DNA of 45,264 bases from an uncultured Candidatus Saccharibacteria bacterium (GCA_964654145.1 CAZZHI010000003.1:15312-60575), one strand, 5' to 3'. Positions 1 to 45,264 are shown, counted from the stretch's first letter. Notes: generated by a model from the letters alone, not told the origin. Translations and numbers: made by a program.

Positions 1-1240
1 GTACGAGCGCAGGTGCGTACATTGCTACGAGTGTTTTTATTGAATCGATAGTTGTTTTACGGGTTCTTTCTTTGTATATGCGATACCCTTCGTATACTAA
101 AGAGCAGGCACCTAGGAGTGCCGCAAGTACAAAGCCTTCTTGGCGAGTCATGGCGCTATACCCGAGCGTTATACCAAAAAGCGGTAATTGCCAAAGTATT
201 CTTTTTTCATGCGAGCGCAAAAAAAGAAATACGGACAGTAAGAGTAAAAACGTGAATATACTGTATGGTTCTGGTCGAAGCGATGTTGCAAAATAGTCTT
301 TTTGAAAAGCAATAATAATTCCCGTAAGAAATGCAACTGGCCAAGAGAGGTGTAGTGATCGGGCAATCATGACAATAAGTACGATGCCTCCTATGCTTGC
401 AAGCGATTGCACGTACCTCATAACTTGTTGGTCATCAAAGAGTCCAGAACCGTAAAAGGGCGCCAAAATAAGTGGATATCCAGGAAGGCGTTTTGTGTTT
501 GCGAAAGGATTTTTACCCTCCATGATTGCGTCTGAAATTGAAAGATAGTTATATGCGTCCCCTCCGCTCACTCCGCCAAATTGCGGAATGACAATTACCC
601 GAAGAATAAAGGATGTGCCTATGAATAATCCGAGAATAATCCACCAGCCTTTTTTATTGTATGAGGTAAGAAGGGCTGCAAGGCCACCTAATAAGGATAG
701 TGCCACGGCCGTTAATACATATGGCAAGGTATTACCTTTCTGCGAGGCGATTGTTTGAATAAACTTCCATGCGGGGACTTTTTCTGTAATAGATAGTGCA
801 AGGGCTCCGTCTTTGGGATTAAAGCGTACCCCAAGAAGGTTTTTGTTTGTGGCATTGGGCGCAGAAAATACAATTCGAATATCTGTTTGGGCTGGGATGG
901 GGCGATCCGGAAAAGAGGTATATGCAAAGGAGTCGTCTTTAATAGATGATGCTGGGATGGTTTGAGATATTAGAGTGGCCCCTGTTGCATCATTGATAAT
1001 TTCAACATGAGAATCCGCAAACTCTTTAGGCTTTTGTAAATTAACTATAATCGCACCTATCCCCGTTGTTTGGTGCTCTGTTGTAATGGTTTGAGAAATT
1101 GTCTTTTCTCTATATATGGGCTTATGTGCTGCATATGTATCTACCCCGTAAGATAATACTCTTTTCTGGGCAACGGGGAGCACAAGGGCTATGCCAAGTA
1201 TAAGAATTGCGCCTGTCAGAAAATACGCCCTACGATTCAT
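1..1240 (-). CDS. GT-C-type polytopic glycosyltransferase (ArnT/PMT-like). Only the N-terminal 413 codons are present; the gene continues past the left window edge.
   Basis: Absent from the supplied ORF track because it has no stop inside the window. Hand translation of the minus strand from ATG 1240-1238 stays open to base 1. It gives MNRRAYFLTGAILILGIALV (TM anchor), a ~150-aa non-hydrophobic segment, then repeated helices. These contain GGDAYNYLSISDAIMEGKNPFANTKRLPGYPLILAPF and MTRQEGFVLAALL. Both are mirrored in the 29899-31506 protein (AGDVFNFQSIARNI..KRLPGFPIAILIG, FTRYEGGPTAVLLL). Confidence 0.7.
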   Translation of the reverse strand, partial: MNRRAYFLTGAILILGIALVLPVAQKRVLSYGVDTYAAHKPIYREKTISQTITTEHQTTGIGAIIVNLQKPKEFADSHVEIINDATGATLISQTIPASSIKDDSFAYTSFPDRPIPAQTDIRIVFSAPNATNKNLLGVRFNPKDGALALSITEKVPAWKFIQTIASQKGNTLPYVLTAVALSLLGGLAALLTSYNKKGWWIILGLFIGTSFILRVIVIPQFGGVSGGDAYNYLSISDAIMEGKNPFANTKRLPGYPLILAPFYGSGLFDDQQVMRYVQSLASIGGIVLIVMIARSLHLSWPVAFLTGIIIAFQKDYFATSLRPEPYSIFTFLLLLSVFLFLRSHEKRILWQLPLFGITLGYSAMTRQEGFVLAALLGACSLVYEGYRIYKERTRKTTIDSIKTLVAMYAPALV

Positions 1241-1275
1241 TTCTCGAGTATACCAGTTTTTGGTATGGTTGCAGT
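1241..1275. promoter_or_regulatory. Back-to-back divergent extended -10 promoters
   Basis: The gap between the divergent starts is only 35 bp. Minus strand: TGGTATACT (1255-1247), then 6 nt, then ATG 1240. Plus strand: TGGTATGGT (1261-1269), then 6 nt, then ATG 1276. Together the two boxes form the inverted repeat ATACCA-N5-TGGTAT. Confidence 0.4.
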
Positions 1276-3159
1276 ATGTGTGGAATCGCAGGAATATGGG
1301 ATAGGTCAAACGCGCCTCTTTCTGATGGGGCGATATTGCGCATGAGGGACTCCCTTGCCCATAGGGGGCCTGATGCGATGTCTGAATATGTACAAGGGCC
1401 TGTTGCATTTGCTCATACGCGCCTTTCCATTATCGATCTTTCGAGCGGAGGGGCTCAGCCTTTTGTTTCGCCAGATGGCAGATATGTATTGGTGTTTAAT
1501 GGAGAAATTTATAATTACCAAGAGCTTCGAGAAAAATATTTTTCCCATGAAGTTTTCGTATCTGATTCCGATACGGAGGTATTGCTTAAAATGCTTGTGA
1601 AGTTCCAAGAAAAAGCATTACCGTTTTTGCGAGGAATGTTTGCGTTTGCCTTTTATGATACCCAAGAGCAAACAATGTTGCTTTCAACGGATCCGTTTGG
1701 GAAAAAGCCACTTTTTTATTCATGGGTAGATGGAGTGTTTTTATTTGCATCAGAGCCTAAAGCTCTTTTTGCTTCTGGATATATAGTTCCCGCCCTTGCC
1801 GACTTGGTAGTGGGGAAATATCTTCTTCATGAATATGTTCCCGCGCCAGAAAGCGGCTTTCGAGGAGTGTATACTTTGGGCGCCGGGCAATATATGTATA
1901 TTTCTTCCGGGTCTGAAAAAATTACTACATGGTGGAGGCCAAATAGCGAAGTACACACCAGTATTTCTTTTGATGATGCAAAGAATCGTTTTGATGAACT
2001 GTTGGGTAGAGCGGTCGAGAGAAGGATGGTTGCTGACGTGCCGGTAGGGCTATTCTTAAGCGGAGGATTGGATTCCAGCACTATTGCTTGGTATATGCGA
2101 AGCGTGCGGAAAGAAGGAGAAATATATTCCTGTTCCGTTTCTTTTGCGGAACATAGTTTTAATGAAGAGCCAATTGCAGCAAAGGTTGCATCGATGTTAT
2201 CTCTTTCTCATAAATCTATTCAGTTTACAAAAGAGGAATTTCTTCATTCTTTACGAGATGTAGTTCCCCTTATGGATGTTCCGCTTGCAGATATTTCTCT
2301 GTTACCTACCTATGCAGTAAGTGCATTAGCTAGAAAGTATATGAAAGTTGTATTAGATGGGGATGGTAGTGATGAGTTGTTAGGTGGGTATGGGACATTC
2401 CCCGCATATGAGCTTGCAGATAAGCTTTCTGCGGTCCCTTCCTTTTTATGGGAAGTGCTCGAGAAGGCGTTACACGGATTGCTCCCAGTCTCTTACTCGT
2501 ATTTTTCTCTTGATTTTAAAGTAAAGGCTTTTTTGCGAGGAATTGCATATCCTTCTGATCGAAATCTCCAAATCTGGCTTGGCTCCTTTACTGAAAAAGA
2601 AACTGACTTATTATTGCTTCCTAGCTACAAGAAAATGCACGCTCAATTTTTTGATGCTGTAGATTCTGCGGTTCCTCGTGCAGTAACGAACCTCTTTGAC
2701 CGTGCGTCGTTGTATCACATAGCAACGTATTTGCATCGAGATATTCTTGTAAAGCTTGATAGGGCAACTATGGCGGTTGGCTTAGAGGCTCGCACGCCAT
2801 TTCTAGATGCTGATCTTGCTGAGTTTATATCAACGCTTCCTCCAAAATATAAAAAAAACAAGAGACTTTTGCGCGAATTAATGAAGGGAAGATTACCAGA
2901 CGAGGTAATTGATCGAAAAAAGCAGGGTTTTGGGATTCCGAGCGCATCATGGTTTGCCAATGATTTATTACCGCTTGTCTCTGCAGTGCTTTCGCAGGAT
3001 CGTATACGGGAGGTCGGGGTTTTTGATTATTCTTATGTCGAAAAGCTTATTTCAGAGCATGCATATAAAAAATATGATCACCGAAAAAAAATATGGACAT
3101 TAATTGTATTTCAGTTGTGGTATGAGTACTGGATTTTGGGAAAGCGCGATATAGTATGA
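1276..3159 (+). CDS. asnB: Asparagine synthase family (glutamine-hydrolysing) amidotransferase, AsnB-like
   Basis: The track ORF is 1207..3159 with a TTG start. I moved the start to ATG 1276 so the protein begins MCGIAGIW, because class-II glutamine amidotransferases use Cys2 as the N-terminal nucleophile. GATase blocks: HRGPD, RLSIIDL, GAQP, NGEIYNY. Synthetase PP-loop: LFLSGGLDSS. The stop overlaps the next start (ATGA at 3156-3159). Confidence 0.9.
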   Translation: MCGIAGIWDRSNAPLSDGAILRMRDSLAHRGPDAMSEYVQGPVAFAHTRLSIIDLSSGGAQPFVSPDGRYVLVFNGEIYNYQELREKYFSHEVFVSDSDTEVLLKMLVKFQEKALPFLRGMFAFAFYDTQEQTMLLSTDPFGKKPLFYSWVDGVFLFASEPKALFASGYIVPALADLVVGKYLLHEYVPAPESGFRGVYTLGAGQYMYISSGSEKITTWWRPNSEVHTSISFDDAKNRFDELLGRAVERRMVADVPVGLFLSGGLDSSTIAWYMRSVRKEGEIYSCSVSFAEHSFNEEPIAAKVASMLSLSHKSIQFTKEEFLHSLRDVVPLMDVPLADISLLPTYAVSALARKYMKVVLDGDGSDELLGGYGTFPAYELADKLSAVPSFLWEVLEKALHGLLPVSYSYFSLDFKVKAFLRGIAYPSDRNLQIWLGSFTEKETDLLLLPSYKKMHAQFFDAVDSAVPRAVTNLFDRASLYHIATYLHRDILVKLDRATMAVGLEARTPFLDADLAEFISTLPPKYKKNKRLLRELMKGRLPDEVIDRKKQGFGIPSASWFANDLLPLVSAVLSQDRIREVGVFDYSYVEKLISEHAYKKYDHRKKIWTLIVFQLWYEYWILGKRDIV

Positions 3160-4595
3160 GTATTATGAAGCGACCTTGGTTCTTGGCCCTACCATCTTTA
3201 TTGCTTTTTATCCTTTTTATCGCTGTAAACGGAGCGTATCTTCATAGAGTGCCAGGGCTTTTGGGCGATGAAGGTTCTGAAGGGGAAAACGTATTTCAAC
3301 TACTACAAAAAGATACGATTACTATTGTCGGGGAACGGTCATATATTGGGCCAATAATCGACTATGTTCGAGTGCCGTATATTGCTGTATTCGGATACAC
3401 TCCGCTTGCGCTTCGCATGCTTATGTTAACTGCTAGCATTGCGACGTTTATTCTTGCGGGATCAGTATTGCGAAAATGGTTTGGGGAAGAAGTTGGGATG
3501 ATTGCGCTTACGTTTTTTTCCTTCTCTCCTGTATTTGTATTGCAGCAACGAATTGGGTGGGCAATTACGTTAAATGTAGTATTCGCATGGCTTTTAATGT
3601 ATGCACTGATGAGCAATTGGAAGCAAAAGTGGCTTCTTTCTGGATTAATTGCTGGATTGGGACTTTCTAACGATATTATATTTTTCCCTATATTTATTGC
3701 TATTATCGTATGTTTTAGCGTTGTGTATCTTTGGTCTTCACATATTCGAACAAGGATTATCGAGGCCTTGTCTTGGTTCTGGATTTTCTGTGTGGGGTTA
3801 ATTGCTGGGTTCGGGACCCAGTTTGCAGTTCTTCTTCTGTTGACGGAGGACCAGGGAAGCAGGGCCGAGGTGGTTGCCGGGTTTAGCAGTCGTCTTCAAG
3901 ATTTTTTACCATCGTTGCCGTTGTACGTTTCTGGGTCCTCTTACGTTGCTCGATATACTGGGTTTGAGTTTTCTCCGAGTGCGATAGTAGCAATTACCAG
4001 CATATTGGGAATTTTTGCCGTTTTAGGATTATTCCATAAAAAAAGACTGTATGTGCTTGCTATTGTTGCGGGGGTGGTTATGCAAAGCTACATCCTTCTG
4101 TATATGGTTGATCGCTTTACGCTTAGGTATTTTGCAGTTATTTCCATGAGTGCTTGGCTGTTAGCCGGGGTAGGTGCAGGGGTTATTATTAAAAAATTTA
4201 TTCCTGCACGTATAGGGGCATATGTACCTCTTGTATTGGCATTTATATTAAGTGTGTGGATTGGATACAGTGCTTTTATTCCTTTTTTACAAACAGGGGG
4301 TAGTTTGAAAGAATTTTCCCTTGGTAATCGAAATGATAAATCCTCTGCGTTTGTGGATATTCGCCCACTAGTATCTTGCGTACGAGGGATAGGGGTTGTG
4401 TATTCTCCGACTCAAGATATTTTTGATCGTTTACAGTACCTAAGTCATGAATATGAAGATCTTCTTGTTGTGGATGGAGAGCGCAAATCATCTGCTGCAT
4501 GGACTGTTGTGTATAGGAAGGTGGATGATCCGATTATTCGTGACCCGTCCTCACCTTGCCCAGAAGTACCATTCTTTAGGGTTGTAAAAAGATAG
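3156..4595 (+). CDS. Polytopic membrane protein, probable GT-C glycosyltransferase (no subfamily recognised)
   Basis: 479 aa with about 11-12 hydrophobic helices by eye. The first loop carries an acidic motif (HRVPGLLGDEGSEGENVF). There is a soluble ~90-aa C-terminal tail. It is translationally coupled to asnB through an ATGA overlap. The assignment rests on topology and motif only. Confidence 0.5.
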   Translation: MSIMKRPWFLALPSLLLFILFIAVNGAYLHRVPGLLGDEGSEGENVFQLLQKDTITIVGERSYIGPIIDYVRVPYIAVFGYTPLALRMLMLTASIATFILAGSVLRKWFGEEVGMIALTFFSFSPVFVLQQRIGWAITLNVVFAWLLMYALMSNWKQKWLLSGLIAGLGLSNDIIFFPIFIAIIVCFSVVYLWSSHIRTRIIEALSWFWIFCVGLIAGFGTQFAVLLLLTEDQGSRAEVVAGFSSRLQDFLPSLPLYVSGSSYVARYTGFEFSPSAIVAITSILGIFAVLGLFHKKRLYVLAIVAGVVMQSYILLYMVDRFTLRYFAVISMSAWLLAGVGAGVIIKKFIPARIGAYVPLVLAFILSVWIGYSAFIPFLQTGGSLKEFSLGNRNDKSSAFVDIRPLVSCVRGIGVVYSPTQDIFDRLQYLSHEYEDLLVVDGERKSSAAWTVVYRKVDDPIIRDPSSPCPEVPFFRVVKR

Positions 4596-4676: not shown

Positions 4677-6698
4677 ATGAATATTGCTTGGGTAAAGCGT
4701 CACTATAAGGATATTGCTTGTATGGCAATTATTTTTGCCGTAGCGCTTATTCCTCGGGTCACGAATCTTGGAACCTTTTTGACTACGGACGAAAAAACAT
4801 GGATAACGCGTTCTTATGAGTTTGCCCGAGCGTTTCAGGATTTTCGTTTTAACGACATGATTCAGACCACTCATCCTGGCGTTACTACGCTTTGGGCGGT
4901 AGGAACTACGGTTCTGGCTAAAGTTGCTACTTCCGATATACCGTTTGAAATAAAAAATCTGTTCCATTTTGTAAAATCGACACAGTTTGTGATCGCTTTT
5001 TTAAATGCGGCGAGTATTCCTTTTATATATCTGCTTCTCTATATAGCTCTGCGTGCTCGGGGAGTTGCTTTCTTTGCCGCAACACTTCTTGCACTTGACC
5101 CTTTCATAATTGGGTACTCTCGCGTTGTTCATGTTGATGCTCTGCTTGGCAGCTTTCTTACCTTGTCGGTACTTTCAACTATTATATATGCTCGTACGCG
5201 TACGCGCGGATGGTTGATTGCAAGCGCTGCTTTGGCCGCTCTGGCGCTGCTTACAAAATTTCCAGCGGTGTTTATTTTTCCGTTTATCATATGTGCAATT
5301 ATCGTATTTTACGGTAAAGAGATTTTGCAGAGAGATGTTCTTATGCAAAAATCCAAAGACGCTATTGTGTGGCTTTTAATTATAATTCTGATGATCCTTA
5401 TTATATGGCCCGCGCTTCTTTGGGTTCCAAACCCAGTGGGTAATGTGCTTCAGGTAAAGCGAGATGTTTCTGTTGCTGCGAGTACTCCGCATGACATGAA
5501 TGAGGATTATACGCTTAATGCAATGCATTACCCTGCTGCGTTACTTGCTCGATCTAACCCCGTTGCGCTTTTTGGGGCTGTTGTAGGGATTATCGCAGTA
5601 GCTATAGGAATCTATAAAAAGAAACCATCAAAAGAAATGGGGCTTATTGTGGTGTATCTCGTGGCGTTTGTAATCATGATGACGCTCGGGGCAAAAAAGG
5701 GTGATCGATACATTATCCCTGCATTCTTCGCTCTTCATATTGTTGCCGCGTACGGAATTATTTGGGTTGTGACTAACTTCTCTCCTTCGCGTCTTCGCGA
5801 TAAGGCTGTTTGGGGCGTGTGCGGAGTGGCTTCTTTATACCTTATGTGGGTTGTTGCTTCGTACCACCCCTATGAAATTGCATACAGTAACCCAATGTTT
5901 CCAGACAATATTAGTCAGGAGCTCGGGTGGGGCGAAGGGCTAGATATCGTTGCGAAGTGGCTTAACGAAAACCATCCAAATGCAATTGTTGCATCCTGGT
6001 ACCCGGGCGAGCTTGGGGCGTTTACCACGGCTCGTGTGGTGCACATAAATGCCCACGAACAGAATCAAGTACAATTTATTGTTGTGTATAGGAATATGTT
6101 TGGTCGAGAGCCGGCTCATTATGCAAACGATTTTATCGATGAGTATTATAAAAAGCGAGAACCCGTGTTTGTTGCGCATGTGGCAGGTAAGGAATTTGCG
6201 TGGGTGTATGAGAAGCCGAGCTACCCTAAAACGATAGGAGATTTGGATGCAAGTATGATTGTTGTGCAAGAGGCTACTGTACAATATGAAAATCTTGCTG
6301 GAATACGCATTTTCCCCGCAACGAGATTTGGCAAGGCTAATACTGGCAAGCTTTCTATTGATGTTTCTAGGGCGCTTGGGGATGCTCCATTTTTTTCAAC
6401 TCAAATTCCGATGACCGAGGTAAAAGATGCGGCATGGCAGCCAATTGATTTTCCTCAAGGCGTTTCGATTCCAAAGGGGGAGCGTGTCTTTATTAGTATT
6501 CGATCTGTCGGGTCGAGTGCTCCATACGCGTCTATGAGGTATTCTTCGGTACCATTTCGTGATACTCCTATCTATATTTCTCGTACGGGGAATATTAAAG
6601 ACGCAGTAGAGAAGCCGGGCTCTATAAGCGTACAGCTAACGTATATTGGAACAGACGGAAAGCTGAGAACCGAGCTAGAAACAAAACTGCTTCGTTAG
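4677..6698 (+). CDS. GT39/PMT_2-like GT-C glycosyltransferase (group 1) with a C-terminal beta-rich extension
   Basis: 673 aa. The loop-1 signature PRVTNLGTFLTTDEKTWITRSYEF...THPGVTTLW is shared with the 14453-15922, 19043-20500 and 32296-33843 proteins. Other shared blocks are LDPFIIGYSRVVHVDALL, KKGDRYIIPAF and a post-membrane GWGEGLDIVAKWLNENHP domain. An extra ~180 non-hydrophobic residues follow at the C-terminus. Confidence 0.8.
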   Translation: MNIAWVKRHYKDIACMAIIFAVALIPRVTNLGTFLTTDEKTWITRSYEFARAFQDFRFNDMIQTTHPGVTTLWAVGTTVLAKVATSDIPFEIKNLFHFVKSTQFVIAFLNAASIPFIYLLLYIALRARGVAFFAATLLALDPFIIGYSRVVHVDALLGSFLTLSVLSTIIYARTRTRGWLIASAALAALALLTKFPAVFIFPFIICAIIVFYGKEILQRDVLMQKSKDAIVWLLIIILMILIIWPALLWVPNPVGNVLQVKRDVSVAASTPHDMNEDYTLNAMHYPAALLARSNPVALFGAVVGIIAVAIGIYKKKPSKEMGLIVVYLVAFVIMMTLGAKKGDRYIIPAFFALHIVAAYGIIWVVTNFSPSRLRDKAVWGVCGVASLYLMWVVASYHPYEIAYSNPMFPDNISQELGWGEGLDIVAKWLNENHPNAIVASWYPGELGAFTTARVVHINAHEQNQVQFIVVYRNMFGREPAHYANDFIDEYYKKREPVFVAHVAGKEFAWVYEKPSYPKTIGDLDASMIVVQEATVQYENLAGIRIFPATRFGKANTGKLSIDVSRALGDAPFFSTQIPMTEVKDAAWQPIDFPQGVSIPKGERVFISIRSVGSSAPYASMRYSSVPFRDTPIYISRTGNIKDAVEKPGSISVQLTYIGTDGKLRTELETKLLR

Positions 6699-10455: not shown

Positions 10456-10458
10456 ATA

Positions 10459-11496: not shown

Positions 11497-11498
11497 AG

Positions 11499-15922: not shown

Positions 15923-15935
15923 ATAAAGCGAAGGT

Positions 15936-26222: not shown

Positions 26223-26245
26223 TGTATATTGCTGTTAAGTATTTC

Positions 26246-27683: not shown

Positions 27684-27749
27684 GCAGCTTTTCAACTGTA
27701 CGCTTTTTGTGTAGTGTCTATATATACTACTAACCAATGTTCTAAAACT

Positions 27750-31506: not shown

Positions 31507-31513
31507 GAAAACT

Positions 31514-35872: not shown

Positions 35873-35882
35873 GCCAATTACT

Positions 35883-37043: not shown

Positions 37044-38148
37044 AGCAAGGGCACTCTCTGCTACGAGCGGTGGCGTAAAATCGTATACTCATGAGCTTAT
37101 TACTCATCTGCTTGCCTTACGTTCTCAAGATTCTTTTGAGGTAATCTATGGCTCCGAAAATATTACCGGACTATTCCCTTCAGTAAAAGAAACTGTGCTC
37201 CCGCTATCTTCTGAACTATTATTACCCTATTGGTTATCTGCTCGAGTTGGACAATATGTAAAAATGCAAAAGCCTACTGTAGTTCATTATACAAAAGCAG
37301 CTATTCCTTTGCGTAGCACCGGCATCCCAACAGTAGTCACGATTTACGATATTATTCCCGAATTTCTCCCTGAAACCCAATCTTTTTTACGGAGAATGTA
37401 TTGGCCAGCTGTTCTACGGCACGCATCTAATCATGCGGACCACATTATAACTATTTCCGAACAGAGTAAGAAGGATATTATTCAGCAGTATCAAATTTCT
37501 GAGGATAAAATAACTGTTACTCCTCTTGCTGTTAATGCTTCTCATTTTTACCCTCGTCCTAAGAGCAATACGGCAAAGCCATACATTCTATTTGTTGGAA
37601 CAAGGGATCAGCGGAAGAACATTTCGTCACTTATTCGATCATTTGCTGCGCTTTCGAAAGAAATTCCTCATCAGCTAGTGATCGCTGGTAAATCTGCGCA
37701 TAAGAATGACGAATCAAAACAAATAGTGCAGGAGCTTAGTATTCAAAATCGTGTAGAATTTCGAGAATATATTCCATACGAAGATTTGCCACAACTTTAC
37801 TCTGATGCGGACCTTTTTGTATGGCCATCTGTTTATGAGGGGTGGGGATTCCCTCCGCAGGAGGCTATGGCTTGCGGAACACCTGTTATTGTAAGCGATG
37901 GCGGGTCGCTTCCAGAAGTTGTCGGCGACGCGGGTATTGTTGTTCCGTTTTCTACATCAAATTTGCATATGCGCATGAATGACACTTCTTTTATTGAGTT
38001 GCTTACGGCGCGTATGCGAGAGGTTTTAGAGGACACTGCTCTTGCTGAAAAACTTCGCTCTAGGGGATTATTGCAATCAAAAAAGTTTTCATGGCAAGGT
38101 GTCGCAGAAAAAACTCGAGATGTGTATAGGCATATAAGCGATTTATGA
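37027..38148 (+). CDS. GT4-family glycosyltransferase (mannosyltransferase-like), tandem paralogue 1
   Basis: 373 aa with VYEGWGFPPQEAMACGTPVIVSDGGSLPEVVGDAG and HADHIITISEQSKKDI. It has the same length as the next gene and collinear motifs. It overlaps the upstream gene by 17 nt. Confidence 0.85.
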   Translation: MNVIIEARALSATSGGVKSYTHELITHLLALRSQDSFEVIYGSENITGLFPSVKETVLPLSSELLLPYWLSARVGQYVKMQKPTVVHYTKAAIPLRSTGIPTVVTIYDIIPEFLPETQSFLRRMYWPAVLRHASNHADHIITISEQSKKDIIQQYQISEDKITVTPLAVNASHFYPRPKSNTAKPYILFVGTRDQRKNISSLIRSFAALSKEIPHQLVIAGKSAHKNDESKQIVQELSIQNRVEFREYIPYEDLPQLYSDADLFVWPSVYEGWGFPPQEAMACGTPVIVSDGGSLPEVVGDAGIVVPFSTSNLHMRMNDTSFIELLTARMREVLEDTALAEKLRSRGLLQSKKFSWQGVAEKTRDVYRHISDL

Positions 38149-39266
38149 AAGCGCATATAGGGATTATTACAAACGCTGTTCCTCATTCTGGCGTTGGAGT
38201 GCGTGCGTATGAGATTGCGCGTCGCATAGAAAAATCGGGTGATATTTCCGCTCCGCTTATTGTGCTAGACGGCGAAAAGAATTCTTTGGAGATATCTGGG
38301 AATACGGTGAAAAAAATTTCACCATGGCCTGGGATATTTGGATCCAAAAGTATTTCCTGGATCCGTCTTGCGCGGCATTTGCCAGACTTTGATGTGTACG
38401 ATATTTCAAATCAAACACTTTCTTTTATTGCTAAAAAAAAGCGACCTTCTATTGTTACGGTGCACGATATTATCGAGTTAACAAACCCACAGGATCCCAA
38501 TGCGCGTCCTCTTAATGCGTATCTTCTTGGGGGTATTACGAATGCTAGTCGAATTATTGCGGTTTCAGAATATACGAAACGATCACTCATGAGTTATTTT
38601 CGTGTTTCAGAAGACTCTATTACGGTTATCCCTAATGGTGTGGGGGTTGAATATAAGAAAATTCCAAATTTTCGCTCTACAATCGGCTATCGTCAACTTA
38701 TTCGGGAGCTCGGGATAGGGGATGATAGGCCTGTTATTGTTTCTGTTGGTTCGGAGCATCCTCGAAAAAATATGAAGACAGTTCTGCGTGTTCTCGCTTC
38801 GTTGAAAAAAGAATTTCCGAATATTCTCCTTATAAAAGTCGGTAATCCTGGAATTCTTTCAGGAAGAAGGGAAGTGCTTAGTCTTATTGATGAGTTGAGG
38901 CTCCAGGATAATGTGAAGCTTGTTGGCAATATTTCAACAGAAAGAATCAATGACCTGTATAATATCGCGACCTGCTTATTGTTCCCTTCTCGGCATGAAG
39001 GGTTTGGATTGCCTCCCCTTGAGGCAATGGCGTCTGGATGCCCCGTCGTCTGCTCAAATGCTACATCTCTTCCTGAAATTGTAGGAGATGCTGCAATACT
39101 GCATGATCCGGACGATGTAGCAGGCTTTACTGCTAGTATATCTAAGCTTGTACATAACGATGTGCGTGCAAGGGAATATAGCGATAAAGGAATACAGCAA
39201 TCAAAGAAATTTTCATGGGACGCAGCCGCGAGAGCTATGGAGGCTGTGTATCGGGACTTACTGTAA
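38145..39266 (+). CDS. GT4-family glycosyltransferase (mannosyltransferase-like), tandem paralogue 2
   Basis: 373 aa with RHEGFGLPPLEAMASGCPVVCSNATSLPEIVGDAA and NASRIIAVSEYTKRSL. An ATGA overlap with the upstream gene lies at 38145-38148. Confidence 0.85.
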   Translation: MKAHIGIITNAVPHSGVGVRAYEIARRIEKSGDISAPLIVLDGEKNSLEISGNTVKKISPWPGIFGSKSISWIRLARHLPDFDVYDISNQTLSFIAKKKRPSIVTVHDIIELTNPQDPNARPLNAYLLGGITNASRIIAVSEYTKRSLMSYFRVSEDSITVIPNGVGVEYKKIPNFRSTIGYRQLIRELGIGDDRPVIVSVGSEHPRKNMKTVLRVLASLKKEFPNILLIKVGNPGILSGRREVLSLIDELRLQDNVKLVGNISTERINDLYNIATCLLFPSRHEGFGLPPLEAMASGCPVVCSNATSLPEIVGDAAILHDPDDVAGFTASISKLVHNDVRAREYSDKGIQQSKKFSWDAAARAMEAVYRDLL

Positions 39267-41552
39267 TATCAATTTCCTTTTTAGGAAAAAAATAGTAGCA
39301 AAAACAAGTGTTGAGGCACTTATAAGCACGCCCACAATGAGCCCAGGGGGCGAATAGCTAACTGAAACCTCTTTGTGAGTTGCAGGCGGTAGTTCTATGC
39401 TCACAAGACCAGTATTTTGTTTCACTGTGCCATAATCTGAATACCAACCTTTTGCGTAATTTGTGTTTAGGGTAACGGTTGTGTCCTTCTCTGAGGAGTA
39501 CGAAAACCGTATAGTATTAGGGGACCAATGCAGGAGCTTAACTATAGTGTCTTTTGTAGACGATAGGTATGCAGGGGATGTTTTTCCGGCAGAAGTTGTA
39601 ATTACACTATTTTTAGGGCCTAACACTGCGCAAAAAGATGAAGTGCCATACCCCTTTAAGATAGCTCCGTAAGAACGAGGGACATCTCGACCTTGATGTC
39701 TAAATTCATACATTTCAGATAAATGGGAAATTGGCACTGTTGTTTGCGGGATATTTTCGGTAATTGGAGGAATAACAAAGCCTTGTTTGGCGATAGGGTA
39801 TGCAAGGCTTATAAGGTCAATAGAAATAAATCCCAACAAAATTAATAAAGCGTTTATATGATAGGAATATTGTAAGGAGAGCACTCTTTTTATTCCAAAG
39901 CCAGCCAATATCCCCCCGCAAAGAACAGAAAATATAACAAGTCTCGAAATATTTGATCGAGGAATGAAGGGAATATAAGCAAGTATTGGTTCAAGTAATG
40001 GCCCAATTGAGGATATGGCGAGAGTTATTATCATGCCAAATATAAGAACGCGAACGATTTTATGTTCTTTCACATAAGAAATACCGAGAAGGATACATGC
40101 CAATGTTCCGTATCCGATATATGCCCCGTATTCGTGCCATAGGCTCAATTGATCTTTAAGAACAAATACTCCTTGTGTGTACCGACCGAAAAATATATCC
40201 CATAACTTTGTGTATGTATAGGTAGATCCAACAAATGCTTGATCAGGAAATTGCTTTAGCCAAAATAGTGTAGGAATTAGTTGAAAGCTCCCAAGACCGA
40301 GCATCCAAATTCCTGCAAAAGCAGATATCGAGCATGCTTTTTTCTTGTTATTTGCAAGTACTATAAAGGCCGCAAATGCGAGAGCGGTATAACTTAAAAT
40401 ATAAATTCCGCCTTGAAGAAGTGCCAAAGTAAGGAATATTCCGCAAAGGAATGTCCATGCAACGTGAGCAGGGGTTAGTGCTCTGTAGGCTTTTAGCCAA
40501 GCAAAAAATACCCATGGTATCCACATGAACGCAAAAATAATTGTTGTGTGGCCTTCAGCTGTTTTAAGCAGTAACGCGCTACTAAAAAGAACAATAATTG
40601 CTGATAACAAGGCGGCGAGAGGAGGAAGTTGCAATGTTTTTGCAAGCCGCACAGCTCCGAGGCCAGTGATGATAAAACACAAAACAATTGATATTCCCGT
40701 TCCCACTTCTTCTCCTAGGAGAAACTGAAAGAGGAAATAGGGTGTAATGAGTGAGAATTCCGGATCACCCAACCCTGCAGCTCCGCCGCAAATGTAGGGA
40801 TTCCAAAACGGCACCTGATGATACTCCCTAATCGTTGCACTATAAATGTGCCCGAGAGAATAGCGATAGTCCCAATCATTAATCCCCCATAGGCCTCCAT
40901 GAGAAAGATATGGATATAACGTTGCTATAGAGCACGCAAGAACAATAATGTGTACAAGGATCCACTTTAAAGATGTGCGAATTGGAACATAGTGAAGTAA
41001 TACGAAAGATATTCCAAGAAAAGTCCCAATTATTATCCCTATGGTTGCATTTAGGCTAATTGGTTCTTTGTATATAATCGAAAGCACTATAGGCGCCTGA
41101 ATAGAATCTTCTGGCATTGCATTAGAGAGAAGCGCCATTTTCTCTTTATGTGAGGGGGAAATTACAAGCTCAAAGGATTCGTTTTTAGGGAAAATCCCGG
41201 GAGTGAACAGTATTTGAATTGCTGGTGCGCCGGATTGGGGGAAGTACGTATGTTGCCAATATTTTTTTGCAACAATAACTCCCTTAGAGGTACGTATGTG
41301 CGCATTAATGAGTGTTTCCGCATCTGTTTCATCCGCCACGTATACAATAATGCCTTTTGGCTGTTTTTCTGGGCGAGGGAATTTTATTACCAGTGGAGCA
41401 TCTTTTGATATTGAAAGAGGTGCCGTTGGCGCATGAAGCTCCTGAAATGTTTGAGGGTCATACTCTCCGAGAGTGAGATAAAATACCCACCCTATTGCAA
41501 GTATGGCGGCACTTACAAGGGTTGCGGAAATAATGGTATTTCGAGGCTTCAT
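39258..41552 (-). CDS. YfhO-like GT-C membrane protein with an N-terminal anchor plus a beta-rich outside module
   Basis: 764 aa. FWNPYICGGAAGLGDPEFSLITPYFLFQFLLG parallels LWSNELGFGQPLLAWGQLGFFTP of 6695-9487. The C-terminal TLNTNYAKGWYSDYGTVKQNTGLVSIELPPATHKEVSVSYSPPG plus a final TM parallels the YfhO C-terminus. One TM and ~140 non-hydrophobic residues precede the membrane core. Confidence 0.65.
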   Translation of the reverse strand: MKPRNTIISATLVSAAILAIGWVFYLTLGEYDPQTFQELHAPTAPLSISKDAPLVIKFPRPEKQPKGIIVYVADETDAETLINAHIRTSKGVIVAKKYWQHTYFPQSGAPAIQILFTPGIFPKNESFELVISPSHKEKMALLSNAMPEDSIQAPIVLSIIYKEPISLNATIGIIIGTFLGISFVLLHYVPIRTSLKWILVHIIVLACSIATLYPYLSHGGLWGINDWDYRYSLGHIYSATIREYHQVPFWNPYICGGAAGLGDPEFSLITPYFLFQFLLGEEVGTGISIVLCFIITGLGAVRLAKTLQLPPLAALLSAIIVLFSSALLLKTAEGHTTIIFAFMWIPWVFFAWLKAYRALTPAHVAWTFLCGIFLTLALLQGGIYILSYTALAFAAFIVLANNKKKACSISAFAGIWMLGLGSFQLIPTLFWLKQFPDQAFVGSTYTYTKLWDIFFGRYTQGVFVLKDQLSLWHEYGAYIGYGTLACILLGISYVKEHKIVRVLIFGMIITLAISSIGPLLEPILAYIPFIPRSNISRLVIFSVLCGGILAGFGIKRVLSLQYSYHINALLILLGFISIDLISLAYPIAKQGFVIPPITENIPQTTVPISHLSEMYEFRHQGRDVPRSYGAILKGYGTSSFCAVLGPKNSVITTSAGKTSPAYLSSTKDTIVKLLHWSPNTIRFSYSSEKDTTVTLNTNYAKGWYSDYGTVKQNTGLVSIELPPATHKEVSVSYSPPGLIVGVLISASTLVFATIFFLKRKLILQ

Positions 41553-41623
41553 ATGCTTAAAAGTATACCTGAATATATAGGGAGTTTTTCATAAATCTGC
41601 TACGCTTTATAAGTACTCATCTT
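41553..41623. promoter_or_regulatory. Divergent promoter pair
   Basis: Minus strand: TATACT (41567-41562), then 9 nt to ATG 41552. Plus strand: TTTTCA (41586-41591), N16, TATAAG (41608-41613), then 10 nt to ATG 41624. Confidence 0.35.
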
Positions 41624-42844
41624 ATGGCAAAAATTCTGTTTTTATCAGCCCAATATCCTCCCGAGTCTAAGGGTGGAGGGGAAATATCTACCCATATTAT
41701 TGCGCAGGGGTTAACAAAGCTTGGTCATACTATTGATGTTATTACGGATGGGTCGGTCGATGCTTTTCGCGAGGTGGGTGGTATTCATGTGCGCACATTA
41801 CCGCTTGGATTAAAATTAAAGCCTCTCTTTGAGCGATTCCATAGCATTCGATCATCTATGCTGTTATCTCGAAAAATTCAGGATATTTCTTCATACGATA
41901 TTGTGCATGCTCATGATTTCCGTAGCGCTCTCATGCTTTCTCACCTCCATCTTCCTAGTGCAGTAGTAACTGCTCGCGATTACGCACAAATAGCTGGATG
42001 TACGAACAATATTCAGGCTAACGGAAATATCGACCCTGGCTGCCAAGGTATACATGAATTATTTCATTGTCACCGTATTGCAGAAGCATCGATTATTCGA
42101 AAGCCATTTCGTATGTGGCAATACATGTACAATAAGGAGTACCGCAAGCAAGCGTTTGCATCTTTCCCGAAGCAGATATTTATTTCCGGGGCGCAGAAAG
42201 ATAGTATTGCGAAGCACCAAGATATTTCTGCGCAACGTACTGCCGTTATCTATAACCCTATTTCAGAAGATTATTTATCAGAGCCGCTAAAAAAGGGTGT
42301 AAGTGGCAATGTGTTATATGCCGGTAGAGTAGAGATGTATAAAGGAGTGCTTCTTTTATTGCGAGCATGGCGAAAGGTCGCTGCGAGCTCTCGACAAGCT
42401 CATTTGTATATTGCGGGTAATGGAGCGCAAAGAGAGGAATATGAACGCTTGGTGGCAACCTGGGGGCTTCAATATCGAGTCACATTTATTCCTCATGTCC
42501 CGTATCATCGGCTACAGGCAATGATTAATGAATGCGAAATATTTGTTGCGCCACATCTCTGGGTGGAGCCATTTGGGCGTACTGTTATAGAGGGGATGGC
42601 TCGAGGTAAGCTCGTAGTATCCGCAAACGTAGGCGGCCCAGCAGAAATTATTACCCACGGAAAAACAGGGCTGTTATTTGAACGTAATTCGCTTTCAGGC
42701 CTAGAAGAGGCTCTTAAGACGGCACTCGCAATGGGTCACTATGATAAAAAAGAAATAGGAATCGCTGCTCGGGACTTTGTACGCGATACATTACGTCCAG
42801 AGCAAATTGCTCAGCAGCACATAGAGTTTTACGAGGGTATTTGA
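41624..42844 (+). CDS. GT4-family (GT-B) glycosyltransferase
   Basis: 406 aa with KILFLSAQYPPESKGGGEISTHIIAQGL and APHLWVEPFGRTVIEGMARGKLVVSANVGGPAEII. The N-terminal domain has a Cys/His-containing insertion (residues ~126-150). Confidence 0.85.
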   Translation: MAKILFLSAQYPPESKGGGEISTHIIAQGLTKLGHTIDVITDGSVDAFREVGGIHVRTLPLGLKLKPLFERFHSIRSSMLLSRKIQDISSYDIVHAHDFRSALMLSHLHLPSAVVTARDYAQIAGCTNNIQANGNIDPGCQGIHELFHCHRIAEASIIRKPFRMWQYMYNKEYRKQAFASFPKQIFISGAQKDSIAKHQDISAQRTAVIYNPISEDYLSEPLKKGVSGNVLYAGRVEMYKGVLLLLRAWRKVAASSRQAHLYIAGNGAQREEYERLVATWGLQYRVTFIPHVPYHRLQAMINECEIFVAPHLWVEPFGRTVIEGMARGKLVVSANVGGPAEIITHGKTGLLFERNSLSGLEEALKTALAMGHYDKKEIGIAARDFVRDTLRPEQIAQQHIEFYEGI

Positions 42845-43884
42845 CTCAGTACCATTTGGGGAGTGATTGCTAGCATCGTTTCGTGAGAAGTCGTTCCTAT
42901 GTTGGGCGCAAGTTCGGTGTTGTATACGGGTGATGTGCCCGGAGCGCGTACTACTATGCTGCTTTTCCCACGCGGGCCAGTTTGAACTTCGCTGGTTGGG
43001 CCAAAGAGACTGATAACTTGCGTACCCGAAGCTGCCGCAATATGCATAAGGCCGCTGTCGTTTGAAATAAGAAGCTTGCAATGTGTAAGAAGGGCGGCCG
43101 TGGTCATAAGAGAGGTTGAAACGATATGCGCTGCACCAGGAAATTTCTTATTGATGGCTTTTTGAATGCTTTTATTTTGTACCAGTTCATCTTTCCCCCC
43201 AAAAAGAAGTATGCGCGTGCTAGCATCCTTTTCGAGCAATTTATTCGCTACCTCCGCAAATCGCTCTAGCGGCCAGCGCTTCCAGGCAAAGCTTGGAGCT
43301 GATCCTGCATGTACGCCCACAGTAGAAGTGTTTTGCTCAAAATTATATGTTTGCAGTATTTTCTGGGCTTCTTGCTTATTCACATCTGGAATTTCGATAG
43401 AGTAAAAAGGCACAGGATCATACGTAATATTGAGAGGTTTAAGTAGGCGAAGATTTTGTTCGATGTCATGGAGAGTTTCATCTTCGGGGATTGCATGAGT
43501 AAGGAGTAACGAAGAATGTGTATTCCCTCTAAATGGGTATGAATTGCCAATGCGCACCGGAATTCCGGCTACATACAGATATGCCGCGCTTTTTATAAGC
43601 TGGCCGGGGGAGAGTACGATTCCTGTATCGTAGGATGCGGCCCGAAGCTCAGAAATTGTTTTTAGGTGCCCTATAAAAGAATTTCGGATTGGCATTTCAA
43701 TCACTTCATCAATGCAGCTCTGAGTCTCTGCGAGCGCCTTAGTGCCTCTTGGGGCTACCCATACCGTTATGTGCCAGTCAGGGCGCGCCCTTTTGAGCGC
43801 AGAAATGGCAGGTAATTGCATAACTAGATTACCAATACCAGATAGCGCAAGAAAGAGTACTTTATTAGGATTTGAGCTCTTCAT
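42829..43884 (-). CDS. GT9-family glycosyltransferase (ADP-heptose:LPS heptosyltransferase-like)
   Basis: 351 aa with KVLFLALSGIGNLVMQLPAISALK, WKRWPLERFAEV and LISNDSGLMHIAAASGTQVISLFGPT, the classic GT9 blocks. Confidence 0.85.
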   Translation of the reverse strand: MKSSNPNKVLFLALSGIGNLVMQLPAISALKRARPDWHITVWVAPRGTKALAETQSCIDEVIEMPIRNSFIGHLKTISELRAASYDTGIVLSPGQLIKSAAYLYVAGIPVRIGNSYPFRGNTHSSLLLTHAIPEDETLHDIEQNLRLLKPLNITYDPVPFYSIEIPDVNKQEAQKILQTYNFEQNTSTVGVHAGSAPSFAWKRWPLERFAEVANKLLEKDASTRILLFGGKDELVQNKSIQKAINKKFPGAAHIVSTSLMTTAALLTHCKLLISNDSGLMHIAAASGTQVISLFGPTSEVQTGPRGKSSIVVRAPGTSPVYNTELAPNIGTTSHETMLAITPQMVLSQIPS

Positions 43885-45010
43885 AGAGTGCTAGCAGCTT
43901 TTTAATAGATGTATCCCATGTAAAATTCTGATAAACGTATTGTTTTCCATATGCGCCAAATCGTTTTTTAAGACCATCTGTTGTGTGTAGAGTAATAATA
44001 GATTGTACTAGTTCATCGTGAGTTAAAAATAGAAGTCCTGCTTGGTCGTGCGGGACAACGTAAGGGATAGCAGATGTGTTGCGAGCAACAACGGGAAGCC
44101 CTGCAGCCATAGCCTCTGCAAGTACAATTCCAAATGCTTCATAGTAGGAGGTATGAACGAATATATCTGCATGTTGATATGCGCCCACTAGCTCTCTGTC
44201 TGATAGTTTTCCTATAATTCGCACACGACTTTCAACTCCAAGTTGGCGGGCAATAGCAAGTAAGCTATGGGCATATCCGAAGTCTTCTCCTGCTACTACG
44301 AGTGCAACATCCGGAATTTTTTTTGCAATATCAGGAAGTGCTCGGACAATATCTTGTAGCCCCTTTGCTCGAGATATTCGAGAGACTGTAAGTAGGATAG
44401 TTCCAGAAATAGATCGCTCCTTAAATGGATTTTCTGCTAATGTTTCAAACGTTGTCACGTCTATTCCTGGAGGGATCAGCTCAAATCTTTTTACCGGCAT
44501 GTGGGACTCTTCTATTAATTTTTGCTCAAAAGGCGAAATTACAACTACCGCATCTGCGGCTGCAAAAGTTAGTCGCCCTATTGTGTTTTTATACAATTGC
44601 CATATTGGCTTTTGGCGTACTCTGTTTTCGTAATAGATGGGGTGAAATATAAATGGAATATGATTCTTTTTCGCATACCGCGCAGATGTGTCTGCTGGCT
44701 GATACCAAAAACCATAGCTTTCTATAATATCTGGCTTGTGGTGGCCAATATAATACGATAATGCTTGAAGGCGAGGATATGAAATAAAGGGCGTAGGGGA
44801 TACAAAAAGGCGTTGTAGGTATATTGGGTCATCGAGTCGTTCTTCTGGCGACAAGAGAGTAATAGGCCCGTGGGTCCTCATTGGGCTCGATAAAACTCTG
44901 ACATCTCGCCCAGCCTCTACATTACGAGTACGAGTTACTAGATTTTTTACATATACTTCCGCACCCCCGCTTGCAGGAGGATAGCGCAGTGTAGTGTGAA
45001 GAATTCTCAT
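43865..45010 (-). CDS. GT4-family (GT-B) glycosyltransferase
   Basis: 381 aa with MRILHTTLRYPPASGGAEVYVKNL and HTSYYEAFGIVLAEAMAAGLPVVARNTSAIPYVV. An ATGA overlap with the upstream gene lies at 45007-45010. Confidence 0.85.
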   Translation of the reverse strand: MRILHTTLRYPPASGGAEVYVKNLVTRTRNVEAGRDVRVLSSPMRTHGPITLLSPEERLDDPIYLQRLFVSPTPFISYPRLQALSYYIGHHKPDIIESYGFWYQPADTSARYAKKNHIPFIFHPIYYENRVRQKPIWQLYKNTIGRLTFAAADAVVVISPFEQKLIEESHMPVKRFELIPPGIDVTTFETLAENPFKERSISGTILLTVSRISRAKGLQDIVRALPDIAKKIPDVALVVAGEDFGYAHSLLAIARQLGVESRVRIIGKLSDRELVGAYQHADIFVHTSYYEAFGIVLAEAMAAGLPVVARNTSAIPYVVPHDQAGLLFLTHDELVQSIITLHTTDGLKKRFGAYGKQYVYQNFTWDTSIKKLLALYEELKS

Positions 45011-45264
45011 AGAGCAAGATATTTTTTTGCCATTTCATATTCATAGTACGCCGAAAGAGCGCTCCATATAATACCCTGCGCACCATCTAGAATACCTTTC
45101 CTGTATATAAGAAGCTTGATAAATTGTCTGCATGCAAGCGTATATGGAAGGAGTGGCGACTTTTTTATGGGCCTACCAGAGCGGTGCAGAGAGCTTCGTT
45201 TCATGTCCTGAGCGTCAAGTGTGGTATAGCGGTGCATCTTTTTTAAATAAGATGCTATTGTTTG
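45007..45264 (-). CDS. GT2 glycosyltransferase, C-terminal fragment (KdtX/WaaE-like tail). The gene starts beyond the right window edge.
   Basis: The track lists 45007..45237, but the frame stays open to base 45264 by hand translation (..QTIASYLKKMHRYTTLDAQ..). The tail KKMHRYTTLDAQDM...FIKLLIYRKGILDGAQGIIWSALSAYYEYEMAKKYLAL matches the K.NRYT...A ... GFLDG..G ... Y.F.KY.KL ending of KdtX-type family-2 transferases. Confidence 0.6.
   Translation of the reverse strand, partial: QTIASYLKKMHRYTTLDAQDMKRSSLHRSGRPIKKSPLLPYTLACRQFIKLLIYRKGILDGAQGIIWSALSAYYEYEMAKKYLAL

Follow-up and report, generated by a model that had tools for sequence, protein, structure and literature searches.

The 45,264-bp stretch of DNA from an uncultured bacterium analysed here (CAZZHI010000003.1:15312-60575; the whole stretch is called the window) probably makes up the greater part of a locus for a cell-envelope glycan, at least 55 kb long, that would encode a much-multiplied, multi-component transmembrane glycosylation or lipoglycan-type system. 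The window encodes 13 membrane glycosyltransferases of the GT-C type, two soluble enzymes of the polyprenyl-phosphate-sugar synthase type, and a set of cytoplasmic Leloir glycosyltransferases. The first-pass annotation had proposed a surface lipoglycan or protein glycosylation system; these enzyme classes are in line with that proposal, and the product and acceptor discussed below are what we infer from them. The host is very probably a member of the Patescibacteria, or candidate phyla radiation (CPR), in or close to Candidatus Andersenbacteria, since the homologues of three window proteins (g01, g27 and g31) with 40–58% identity are named Candidatus Andersenbacteria or Patescibacteria group.

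All 13 GT-C genes listed in the first-pass annotation are real open reading frames (ORFs) for polytopic proteins, each with evidence for the GT-C type, and their summed length of 23,493 bp (51.9% of the window) agrees with the earlier estimate of about 23.5 kb, or half of the window. By hydropathy, the 12 complete proteins have seven to twelve transmembrane (TM) helices, and the cut fragment g01 has five. Matches to the Pfam models PMT_2 (gathering score 26.1 bits) and/or PMT (PF02366) above the gathering score were found for g01 (1–1240, minus strand; PMT_2 34.8 bits, PMT 27.3 bits), g04 (4677–6698, plus), g10 (14453–15922, minus), g14 (19043–20500, minus; PMT_2 42.2 bits) and g17 (22495–24117, minus), the last showing the strongest match of the 13 (PMT_2 62.1 bits, PMT 47.3 bits); the PF02366 cut-off is passed by g01, g04, g10 and g17. 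The 930-aa protein g05 (6695–9487, minus), with a large C-terminal domain, belongs to the YfhO family (53.3 bits versus a gathering score of 28.5 bits). Four more proteins score just below the PMT_2 threshold (20–26 versus 26.1 bits), namely g03 (3156–4595, plus; 20 bits, nine TM helices), g09 (12087–14456, plus; 26.0 bits), which has an extra N-terminal domain, g12 (16721–18265, plus; 26.0 bits) and g26 (32296–33843, plus; 24 bits). Finally, g24 (29899–31506, plus; eight TM helices), g27 (33824–35872, plus) and g31 (39258–41552, minus) have no Pfam match. The first gene, g01, has to be corrected with respect to the earlier reading: it lies on the minus strand and is truncated at the C-terminal side by the left border of the window. 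Its N-terminal 413 aa are available, and no identical full-length protein is on record; a beta-rich domain lies between its first TM helix and the core. A C-terminal extracytoplasmic domain of about 270 aa is found in g04.

The proteins below the Pfam cut-offs are linked to the GT-C type in several ways. Among 1.84 billion proteins, the small g03 family has 181 representatives. PMT_2 is matched by 37 of the 40 members that were aligned (best 9e-17), and all of these share the aspartate D38 in loop 1. According to blastp, g26 is paralogous to g04, g10 and g14 (1e-11 to 1e-15). The C-terminal halves of g09 and g12 are homologous (4e-42), and in a phmmer search g24 aligns to g01 over the PMT_2 region of the latter (2e-12). 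For g27, which represents an undescribed family, and the YfhO-like g31, AlphaFold2 models built from homologue alignments (predicted local distance difference test 90.6 and 87.4, predicted template modelling score 0.86 and 0.88, respectively) show multi-helix bundles. Foldseek searches of the Protein Data Bank (PDB) with these two models returned exclusively GT-C enzymes as the top 16–23 matches of each (probability 0.99–1.00): AftD, PglB, STT3 and EmbB for g27 (4e-7 to 1e-5) and AftD, AftA, EmbB, STT3 and ArnT for g31, with AglB also among the GT-C matches. The GT-C fold of both was reached by fold search, as sequence searches of g27 and g31 against PDB chains gave nothing at E<=1; the g03-family profile likewise had no match among PDB chains. 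Outside domains of the modelled proteins, at the C-terminus of g27 and at both the N- and C-terminus of g31, are beta-sandwiches resembling carbohydrate-binding modules (CBM). The two families are distant homologues (hhalign probability 96.9%, E 1.5e-10), and PF09586 (YfhO) is present in some g31 homologues. Comparison of the g03 family with the g27 family and with g24 by hhalign gave no significant result.

As the first-pass annotation had noted, an acidic D/E motif occurs in the first loop, and we found it directly after the first core helix in 13 of 13 proteins. It reads TDE in g04 and g17, VDE in g10, PDE in g14, QDE in g26, EDE in g12, IDE in g09, GDE in g03, GGD in g01 (residues 226–228), AGD in g24, GGDPWQ in g27, DWD in g31 and LDD in g05. 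The GGDPWQ motif of g27 is nearly invariant and its D41 invariant, as is the motif aspartate in the g31 family, and hhalign superposes the DWDY motif of g31 on GGDPWQ of g27. The positive N-termini of the proteins suggest that the motif loop faces outward. Searches of the proteins against one another with blastp and phmmer give about seven groups, {g04, g10, g14, g26, g17}, {g01, g24}, {g09, g12}, g03, g05, g27 and g31, with no pair more than about 30% identical; a local profile of the first group reached only g12. The earlier view of at least five sequence groups is thereby extended, and recent tandem amplification is ruled out by the low identity of the paralogues.

None of the 13 proteins scores as a transporter, O-antigen ligase or polymerase; such scores for most of them had been named beforehand as an outcome that would overturn the hypothesis. 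One could still argue that some of them are flippase-associated proteins of the Agl23 kind, polymerases or ligases, or inactive scaffolds, leaving well under 13 active GT-C enzymes. The NCBIfam model of the Agl23 'flippase activity-associated protein' matches g04, g10, g14 and g17 (5e-11 to 4e-7), several members lie below Pfam cut-offs, and a dedicated flippase is not present. However, the Agl23 scores are far under the cut-off (30–42 versus 126 bits), the acidic loop-1 motif that an active GT-C enzyme should have is retained in each of the 13, and the substitutions between strains are mostly synonymous, so we regard this explanation as highly improbable. The assignment of all 13 to the GT-C type glycosyltransferases is confirmed by the lines of evidence taken together, the Pfam profiles by themselves giving a mixed picture.

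The second component of the system is a pair of soluble GT2 enzymes, g18 (24196–24912, plus) and g21 (26979–27683, plus), for which the earlier description as Ppm1/DPM1-like holds: both match Dol-P-Man (dolichyl-phosphate-mannose) synthase, ArnC and PpgS best. In a phmmer search of the PDB, their closest solved relative is the Pyrococcus Dol-P-Man synthase 5mlz (1.5e-25 for g18, 9e-15 for g21), followed by ArnC. The best NCBIfam models are AglJ, ArnC and PpgS for g18 and PpgS for g21 (4.2e-16), and include Dol-P-hexose transferase and PpgS, the mycobacterial polyprenyl-P-GalNAc (N-acetylgalactosamine) synthase; because all NCBIfam scores stay below the equivalog cut-offs, the two proteins are assigned to the family and to no specific enzyme. 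Neither has a TM helix. Gene g18 is adjacent to and divergent from the GT-C gene g17, g21 lies inside the g17–g24 block, and a third enzyme of this type stands beside a YfhO-like gene in the right flank. Donor synthases with the GT-A fold and GT-C enzymes are therefore encoded together in the locus, and this co-location with three DPM1/PpgS-like genes suggests that the 13 GT-C proteins would use polyprenyl-phosphate-linked donors.

The third component is cytoplasmic. The counts of six GT4, one GT9, six methyltransferases, three short-chain dehydrogenase/reductase (SDR) enzymes and one AsnB given previously are all correct. The GT4 enzymes, matched by Glycos_transf_1, are g16 (21294–22484, minus; 3.1e-26) and five members of a conserved core: g28 (35883–37043, plus; 4.2e-43), g29 (37027–38148, plus; 1.4e-33), whose synteny is kept in relatives, g30 (38145–39266, plus; 9.5e-34), g32 (41624–42844, plus; 1.9e-33) and g34 (43865–45010, minus; 4.3e-35). 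The GT9 enzyme of the heptosyltransferase family, g33 (42829–43884, minus; Glyco_transf_9 8.9e-38), reaches 126.7 bits with the NCBIfam heptosyltransferase II model against a cut-off of 134.6. At the right end, g35 (45007–45264, minus) is the C-terminal 85 aa of a 257-aa GT2 running past the window (full gene L004:9231–10004, Glycos_transf_2 1.4e-21; L004 is the locus that provides 10 kb to the right of the window, and coordinates given with it are in its own numbering). This enzyme had been called KdtX-like, but it is a generic GT2 without specific support for KdtX. The SDR enzymes are presumed to act on nucleoside diphosphate (NDP) sugars and comprise the epimerase/dehydratase g06 (9484–10455, minus; Epimerase 8.5e-58), with NCBIfam matches to GalE and dTDP-glucose dehydratase below cut-off, g07 (10459–11514, minus; 1.9e-43) and g23 (28979–29902, plus; 7e-44). 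Two methyltransferases, g19 (24915–26222, minus; Methyltransf_14 3.6e-46) and g22 (27714–28982, plus; Methyltransf_14 1.9e-52), are of the NDP-hexose C-methyltransferase type and match Methyltransf_13 as well. The other four are small S-adenosylmethionine (SAM) methyltransferases: g11 (15936–16706, minus; Methyltransf_11 5.9e-18), g15 (20561–21283, plus; Methyltransf_23 2.1e-16), g20 (26222–26917, plus; Methyltransf_25 6.3e-17) and g25 (31418–32299, plus; Methyltransf_31 1.4e-20). Genes of the latter kind are found directly beside GT-C genes in g10–g11–g12 (14453–18265), g14–g15 (19043–21283) and g25–g26 (31418–33843). The AsnB-type glutamine amidotransferase g02 (1276–3159, plus; Asn_synthase 4e-86, NCBIfam asn_synth_AEB 435 bits) is divergent from g01. 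An identical copy is found only on a 3-kb contig, and a scan of genomes with AsnB yielded only AsnB genes of 30–39% identity from many phyla; possible substrates of the enzyme are peptidoglycan and a uronic acid in the glycan.

Systems of similar logic are known as multi-component transmembrane glycosylation systems, in which a GT-A enzyme, sometimes cytoplasmic and accompanied by a small membrane partner, makes an undecaprenyl-phosphate (C55-P)-linked sugar, GtrA or Wzx flips it, and a PMT_2, YfhO or unclassified GT-C enzyme adds the sugar to an envelope polymer (PMC8035078). Such systems include GacI/GacJ/GacK/GacL in Streptococcus pyogenes, CsbB/GtcA/YfhO and GtlA/GtcA/GtlB in Bacillus, Staphylococcus and Listeria, and CsdAB/CD/EF with CflA in Lactococcus (PMC8035078). 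The membrane partner DUF2304, the GacJ/Rv3632 family, stimulates the synthases GacI (C55-P-GlcNAc, N-acetylglucosamine) and PpgS (polyprenyl-P-GalNAc) (bioRxiv 10.1101/180810). The locus shares with these systems a GT2 predicted to make the lipid-linked sugar and PMT_2- or YfhO-type GT-C enzymes that would transfer it outside, as well as the separability of the donor synthase from its small membrane partner, DUF2304/GacJ being encoded in relatives of this locus; moreover, several GT-C enzymes in such systems can share one flippase encoded elsewhere. It differs by combining 13–14 GT-C enzymes and three donor synthases in one locus, as opposed to one to three pairs per genome, by the absence of a GtrA/Wzx flippase and of DUF2304 in 55 kb, by methyltransferase genes interleaved with those for GT-C enzymes, and by its CPR host, for which no such system is described in the literature searched.

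The first-pass annotation had taken the actinobacterial split pathway as the nearest parallel. This fits as one instance, but the monoderm systems GacI/J/K/L and CsbB/GtcA/YfhO and the PpgS/Rv3632/Rv3779 system are closer (PMC8035078; bioRxiv 10.1101/180810). In mycobacteria and corynebacteria, phosphatidylinositol mannosides, lipomannan, lipoarabinomannan and arabinogalactan are made by the GT4 enzymes PimA/PimB, Ppm1 and the GT-C enzymes PimE, MptA-C, Emb and Aft, and PpgS/Rv3632/Rv3779 puts galactosamine on arabinan. The likeness consists of a split pathway, in which GT4 enzymes first act on a lipid anchor in the cytoplasm, soluble enzymes of the Ppm1/PpgS type make the donors, and many GT-C steps follow outside; no flippase is known for the mycobacterial pathway either, the g27 and g31 models match AftD, AftA and EmbB best, and PpgS is the top NCBIfam model of g21. 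In contrast, the window proteins have no Pfam match to GT87/DUF2029 or arabinosyltransferase models, genes for phosphatidylinositol synthase or decaprenyl-P-arabinose are not found in the region, the genes are clustered here and dispersed in mycobacteria, and the locus has a GT9 and C-methyltransferases.

The scheme that we propose starts from what the data show, namely the enzyme families, GT-C folds, motifs, synteny and purifying selection, and infers from them which donors are used, how the proteins are oriented, how flipping occurs, what the acceptor is and in which order the steps take place. In the cytoplasm, Leloir enzymes, of which six are GT4, one is a GT9 and one or two are GT2, would build a membrane-anchored glycan. 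Its NDP-sugar precursors would be tailored by the three SDR enzymes, both C-methyltransferases, the four small SAM methyltransferases and the AsnB-type amidotransferase. Meanwhile, the two soluble DPM1/PpgS/GacI-type GT2 enzymes, and the third in the flank, would load single sugars onto polyprenyl phosphate. Both the lipid-linked sugars and the nascent glycan would then be flipped by some protein of the cell, and outside the membrane the 13 GT-C enzymes (14 with the flank) of about seven families would add sugars to the glycan, each with its own linkage or acceptor specificity. The many cytoplasmic GT4, GT9 and GT2 enzymes together with the sugar-tailoring enzymes point to a substantial glycan built inside. 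The acceptor is most likely a lipoglycan or a wall-associated polymer; a lipoglycan would fit best, given that a priming transferase, an exporter and a ligase were not found in the 55 kb seen. A glycan rather than a protein acceptor is also favoured by the CBM-like beta-sandwich domains of the modelled GT-C proteins, as in AftD/Emb, and by the cell-wall genes that surround the locus, which are MurJ and, in relatives, MreB-MurA. The conserved right flank gives a further hint to the acceptor, as it encodes a TagB/F-like enzyme and a deacetylase.

Alternatively, the PMT_2/PMT-type enzymes might act on pilins, S-layer proteins or adhesins with polyprenyl-P-sugars, like the actinobacterial Pmt (GT39), the paralogues serving different protein substrates or sugars. 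The four proteins passing the PF02366 cut-off and weak NCBIfam matches to archaeal STT3 and Agl23 are compatible with such protein O-glycosylation, a process that can do without a priming transferase and an exporter of polymers and so matches the absences noted here; besides, Patescibacteria depend on surface appendages. With the eukaryotic PMT and actinobacterial Pmt of family GT39 the window proteins share PMT_2/PMT matches over the N-terminal helices, the loop-1 DE motif and a DPM1-like GT2 donor synthase. Yet no MIR domain or other Pmt-specific feature was detected in them, the matches cover about 130–220 residues with scores near the cut-offs, and the paralogues are far more numerous and diverse and accompanied by a large cytoplasmic glycan-building set. 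With six GT4, a GT9, a GT2 and genes for the tailoring of NDP-sugars, a glycan of considerable size is expected to be built in the cytoplasm; the modelled outside domains resemble carbohydrate-binding beta-sandwiches, and none of the proteins of the locus is a candidate substrate. On balance, protein O-glycosylation appears unlikely.

To the right, the locus continues beyond the window for another 10 kb or more, so that its total of at least 55 kb includes 14 GT-C enzymes and three donor synthases. From the window outward, this flank encodes the rest of the g35 GT2, then a polysaccharide deacetylase, a protein that is TagB/F-like or of the 'surface carbohydrate biosynthesis' kind, a YfhO-like GT-C enzyme that is the 14th of the locus (687 aa, with a weak GT-C_AftD match), the third DPM1/PpgS-like GT2 (234 aa), a GT9-like protein, a 373-aa protein (L004:2369–3490), MurJ (L004:825–2372) and an eight-helix protein of 275 aa (L004:1–828). 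MurJ lies about 7.6–9.2 kb past the right end of the window; it is full-length and passes the NCBIfam equivalog cut-off (256 versus 235.55 bits), and thus is probably the housekeeping lipid II flippase.

Among the 35 window proteins, no Pfam family match was obtained for a flippase, Wzy, Wzz, an ATP-binding cassette (ABC) exporter, a priming transferase or a nucleotidyltransferase; in particular, GtrA_DPMS_TM and Polysacc_synt have no match in the window. No GtrA, Wzx, Wzy, ABC exporter or priming transferase was detected in the 55 kb seen, that is, the window and 10 kb of right flank, and DUF2304 and GtrA went undetected there even with tblastn. The absence of such a toolkit claimed in the first-pass annotation therefore stands for the window, which has no flippase, exporter or priming gene, but is partly an effect of the window boundary and of the lineage, as MurJ lies about 8 kb to the right and relatives have GtrA, DUF2304, NTP_transferase and HldE-like genes. 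Two window proteins, g08 (11499–12017, minus; 172 aa, one N-terminal helix) and g13 (18310–18966, minus; 218 aa, soluble), as well as the eight-helix 275-aa and the soluble 373-aa flank proteins, are candidates for the missing partner or flippase; none of the four has a Pfam or NCBIfam family, and gene calls on contigs of sister strains give g08 and g13 identical lengths. Since the flippase of known systems may be encoded elsewhere (PMC8035078), its absence near the locus is compatible with the proposed mechanism.

Another possibility is that these genes belong to an ordinary Wzx/Wzy- or ABC-dependent polysaccharide or teichoic-acid locus with parts beyond the 55 kb, the GT-C enzymes being side-chain decorators of the Gtr/YfhO kind. 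The left flank, which the 55 kb does not include, leaves space for this, and it would accord with the TagB/F-like domain and deacetylase of the right flank, the SDR-GT4-GT2-NTP_transferase genes located beyond MreB-MurA in relatives, and the MurJ-family gene near the cluster in the flank and, rearranged, in the related loci L113 and L118. The canonical pathway that flanking sequence might have supplied did not appear, however: the right flank contributes, over its 10 kb, no gene of a Wzx/Wzy, ABC or priming-transferase pathway, and components of a Wzx/Wzy/ABC locus number zero in the 35 window and nine right-flank proteins. Nor are Wzy_C, Bac_transf, MraY/WecA-type or ABC families found in the 10 kb flank and, among the 25 commonest of 74 families, in about 20 related loci. 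MurJ passes the peptidoglycan-flippase equivalog cut-off, and a single polymer decorated by 13–14 GT-C enzymes would even then have no precedent. Taken together, this explanation seems quite unlikely.

A diderm lipopolysaccharide (LPS) or O-antigen locus is rejected for the lack of Kdo (3-deoxy-D-manno-octulosonic acid), lipid A and Wzy genes in the region and because of the CPR lineage. Features reminiscent of the LPS inner-core and O-antigen systems (WaaC/WaaF of GT9, GtrABC) are the near-threshold match of the GT9 to heptosyltransferase II, an HldE-like gene in a relative and the GT2 plus GT-C logic, whereas WaaA, lipid A, Wzx, Wzy, Wzz and WaaL genes are not found in the region, and in particular no Kdo or lipid A genes lie beside the GT9. 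The inferred host lineage is not known to make LPS. The HldE-like bifunctional gene (CTP_transf_like plus PfkB) is at the edge of L086 (1–28) and runs off that locus; such an enzyme would provide the GT9 with ADP-heptose, a surprising feature for this lineage.

Comparison with loci of relatives from genomes and metagenomes (L-numbers) shows a conserved core, g27–g35 onward, the other GT-C, methyltransferase and donor modules being additions that vary with the lineage. The right module (g27–g35 onward) is syntenic in L086 at 51–71% amino acid identity (69% for g28) and, with some losses, in about 15 metagenome loci, where the g27 orthologue is 28–58% identical; orthologues of g27 are known from more than 150 proteins and from 31 loci. 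Only the closest relatives, L086 and L090, have g31 between g30 and g32; it is absent from this position in L092, L094–L096 and L100–L106, and a g31 paralogue of 596–601 aa stands beside the g01 orthologue in L087 and L089. These last two also conserve the left module (g01–g05), including the divergent g01/AsnB pair (window 1–3159; L087:8080–15788, L089:2636–10783), two genes from MreB and MurA; g01 orthologues in relatives have 548–715 aa, and g04 orthologues occur in L087, L110, L113 and L115. In relatives, the g01 orthologue is followed by the g31-paralogous GT-C gene, then MreB, MurA, a PEGA/beta-propeller protein and CsrA, and beyond CsrA by a group of SDR, GT4, GT2 and NTP_transferase genes.

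The middle block partly recurs in compact form beside g27 in L096 (459–7636), in the order g16, g26, g15, g14, g12, g25, g11, with the g11 orthologue adjoining g27 and a g12 orthologue included, so that GT-C and methyltransferase genes travel together. That their pairing is kept in L096 suggests methylated sugars or methylated lipid-linked donors. Upstream of and divergent from g27, nine related loci carry a g21-like GT2 with a three-helix DUF2304 protein beside it, a GT4 and a 660–750-aa protein with 11–13 helices (e.g., the GT2/DUF2304 pair at L086:8942–10002, and the same position in L090, L092, L095, L101, L102, L105 and L106); in the window, this position is occupied by g25 and g26. Furthermore, a PMT_2 GT-C is fused C-terminally to a GtrA/DPMS domain (Pfam 2.4e-13) in L086 (9–1484, minus) and L092 (111–1580, minus), and would combine a transferase and a flippase-type module in one polypeptide. 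In the distant relatives L113 and L118, a MurJ-family gene is found near the g04/g27-like cluster in a different arrangement, which may be due to chance or may reflect a link between the cluster and the flipping of lipid-linked precursors.

These patterns allow a more speculative extension: a modular surface-glycan factory occupying at least 5% of the approximately 1-Mb genomes of Andersenbacteria-like CPR bacteria (a size inferred from relatives' contigs of 0.4–0.85 Mb) and working with no known flippase, priming or exporter gene. Cassettes of GT-C, methyltransferase and donor-synthase genes would be swapped around the conserved core, giving lineage-specific methylated surface glycans for host attachment or phage evasion, and flipping would be done by GT-C proteins, by GT-C::GtrA fusions or by a new family (g08, g13, the eight-TM 275-aa protein). 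We put this forward tentatively, as a possible but not the expected outcome.

Several metagenome samples from aquatic environments have yielded sister contigs with the same gene order as the window. Samples of this population are PRJNA377521 (ERZ964736-9) and ERZ27268712-25. Positions 33865–45264 are 99.9% identical in them, and positions 9043–30500 are 99.4% identical to the sister contig L121 without any indel. Only 17 of the 130 mismatches with L121 change an amino acid; they are concentrated in g06, g07, g10, g11 and g17, and g20–g24 are identical. This indicates purifying selection and patchy recombination in the locus, and because the mismatches mostly leave the protein unchanged, the genes appear to be functional. 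The 'island' of the first-pass annotation, if understood as imported DNA, is not upheld: G+C content is flat, tRNA and mobility genes are lacking, and the end modules are conserved between cell-wall housekeeping genes. Horizontal acquisition is ruled out on the same grounds of flat G+C content, missing mobility genes and conserved synteny.

Several points weigh against the interpretation as a lipoglycan-type transmembrane glycosylation system. The left flank is not covered by the 55 kb, in which no GtrA, Wzx, ArnE/F-type or other candidate flippase occurs except the apparently housekeeping MurJ, and the window has no DUF2304 partner, so that g18 and g21, lacking TM helices, have no recognizable means of membrane association there. 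A priming phosphoglycosyltransferase, a LytR-CpsA-Psr (LCP) ligase, a lipid-anchor synthase and an exporter were not seen in the 55 kb either, which makes the acceptor pathway incomplete as observed. Membrane topology was derived from hydropathy; structure prediction and fold search covered g27 and g31, two of the 13 GT-C proteins; g03, g09, g12 and g26 are tied to the type by sub-threshold Pfam matches and indirect links, and g24 by its paralogue link. Lineage affinity was read from the names of homologues at 40–58% identity and not from marker genes.

The window is densely packed, with 35 ORFs in 15 same-strand runs, 15 strand switches and a coding fraction of 98.8%. Overlaps of 4–35 bp are frequent, and intergenic gaps measure 10–81 bp, too little for a gene to have been overlooked. 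Divergent and convergent gene pairs often have almost no non-coding DNA between them throughout the window. G+C content is even (0.40–0.45), no tRNA gene is present, the single tandem repeat is trivial, and Rfam gave no match in the window and four related loci. The gene starts of g05 (9487), g18 (24196) and g21 (26979) given previously match the calls on sister contigs, where g05 also has 930 aa.

All component classes of the locus are known and the mechanism is conventional in outline. What is unusual is the presence of 13–14 GT-C enzymes of about seven families and three donor synthases within at least 55 kb in a lineage with genomes of about 1 Mb, with neither a flippase nor a membrane partner in the 55 kb and with methyltransferases interleaved. 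We found no description of GT-C expansions or surface-glycan loci in Patescibacteria in the literature searched, which is not proof of absence from the literature; recent overviews of this group and the one genetic study consulted do not discuss glycosyltransferases or GT-C. Patescibacteria make up a large share of bacterial diversity and live attached to other cells with minimal metabolism, and their surface chemistry is essentially unknown. The devotion of half of the window to outside-acting glycosyltransferases predicts a complex, probably methylated and lineage-specific surface glycan. The locus provides named gene targets for probing the CPR surface glycan, many diverse and compact GT-C enzymes and donor synthases for biochemical and structural work, and a natural case for studying how polyprenyl-P-sugars are flipped without a known flippase encoded nearby.

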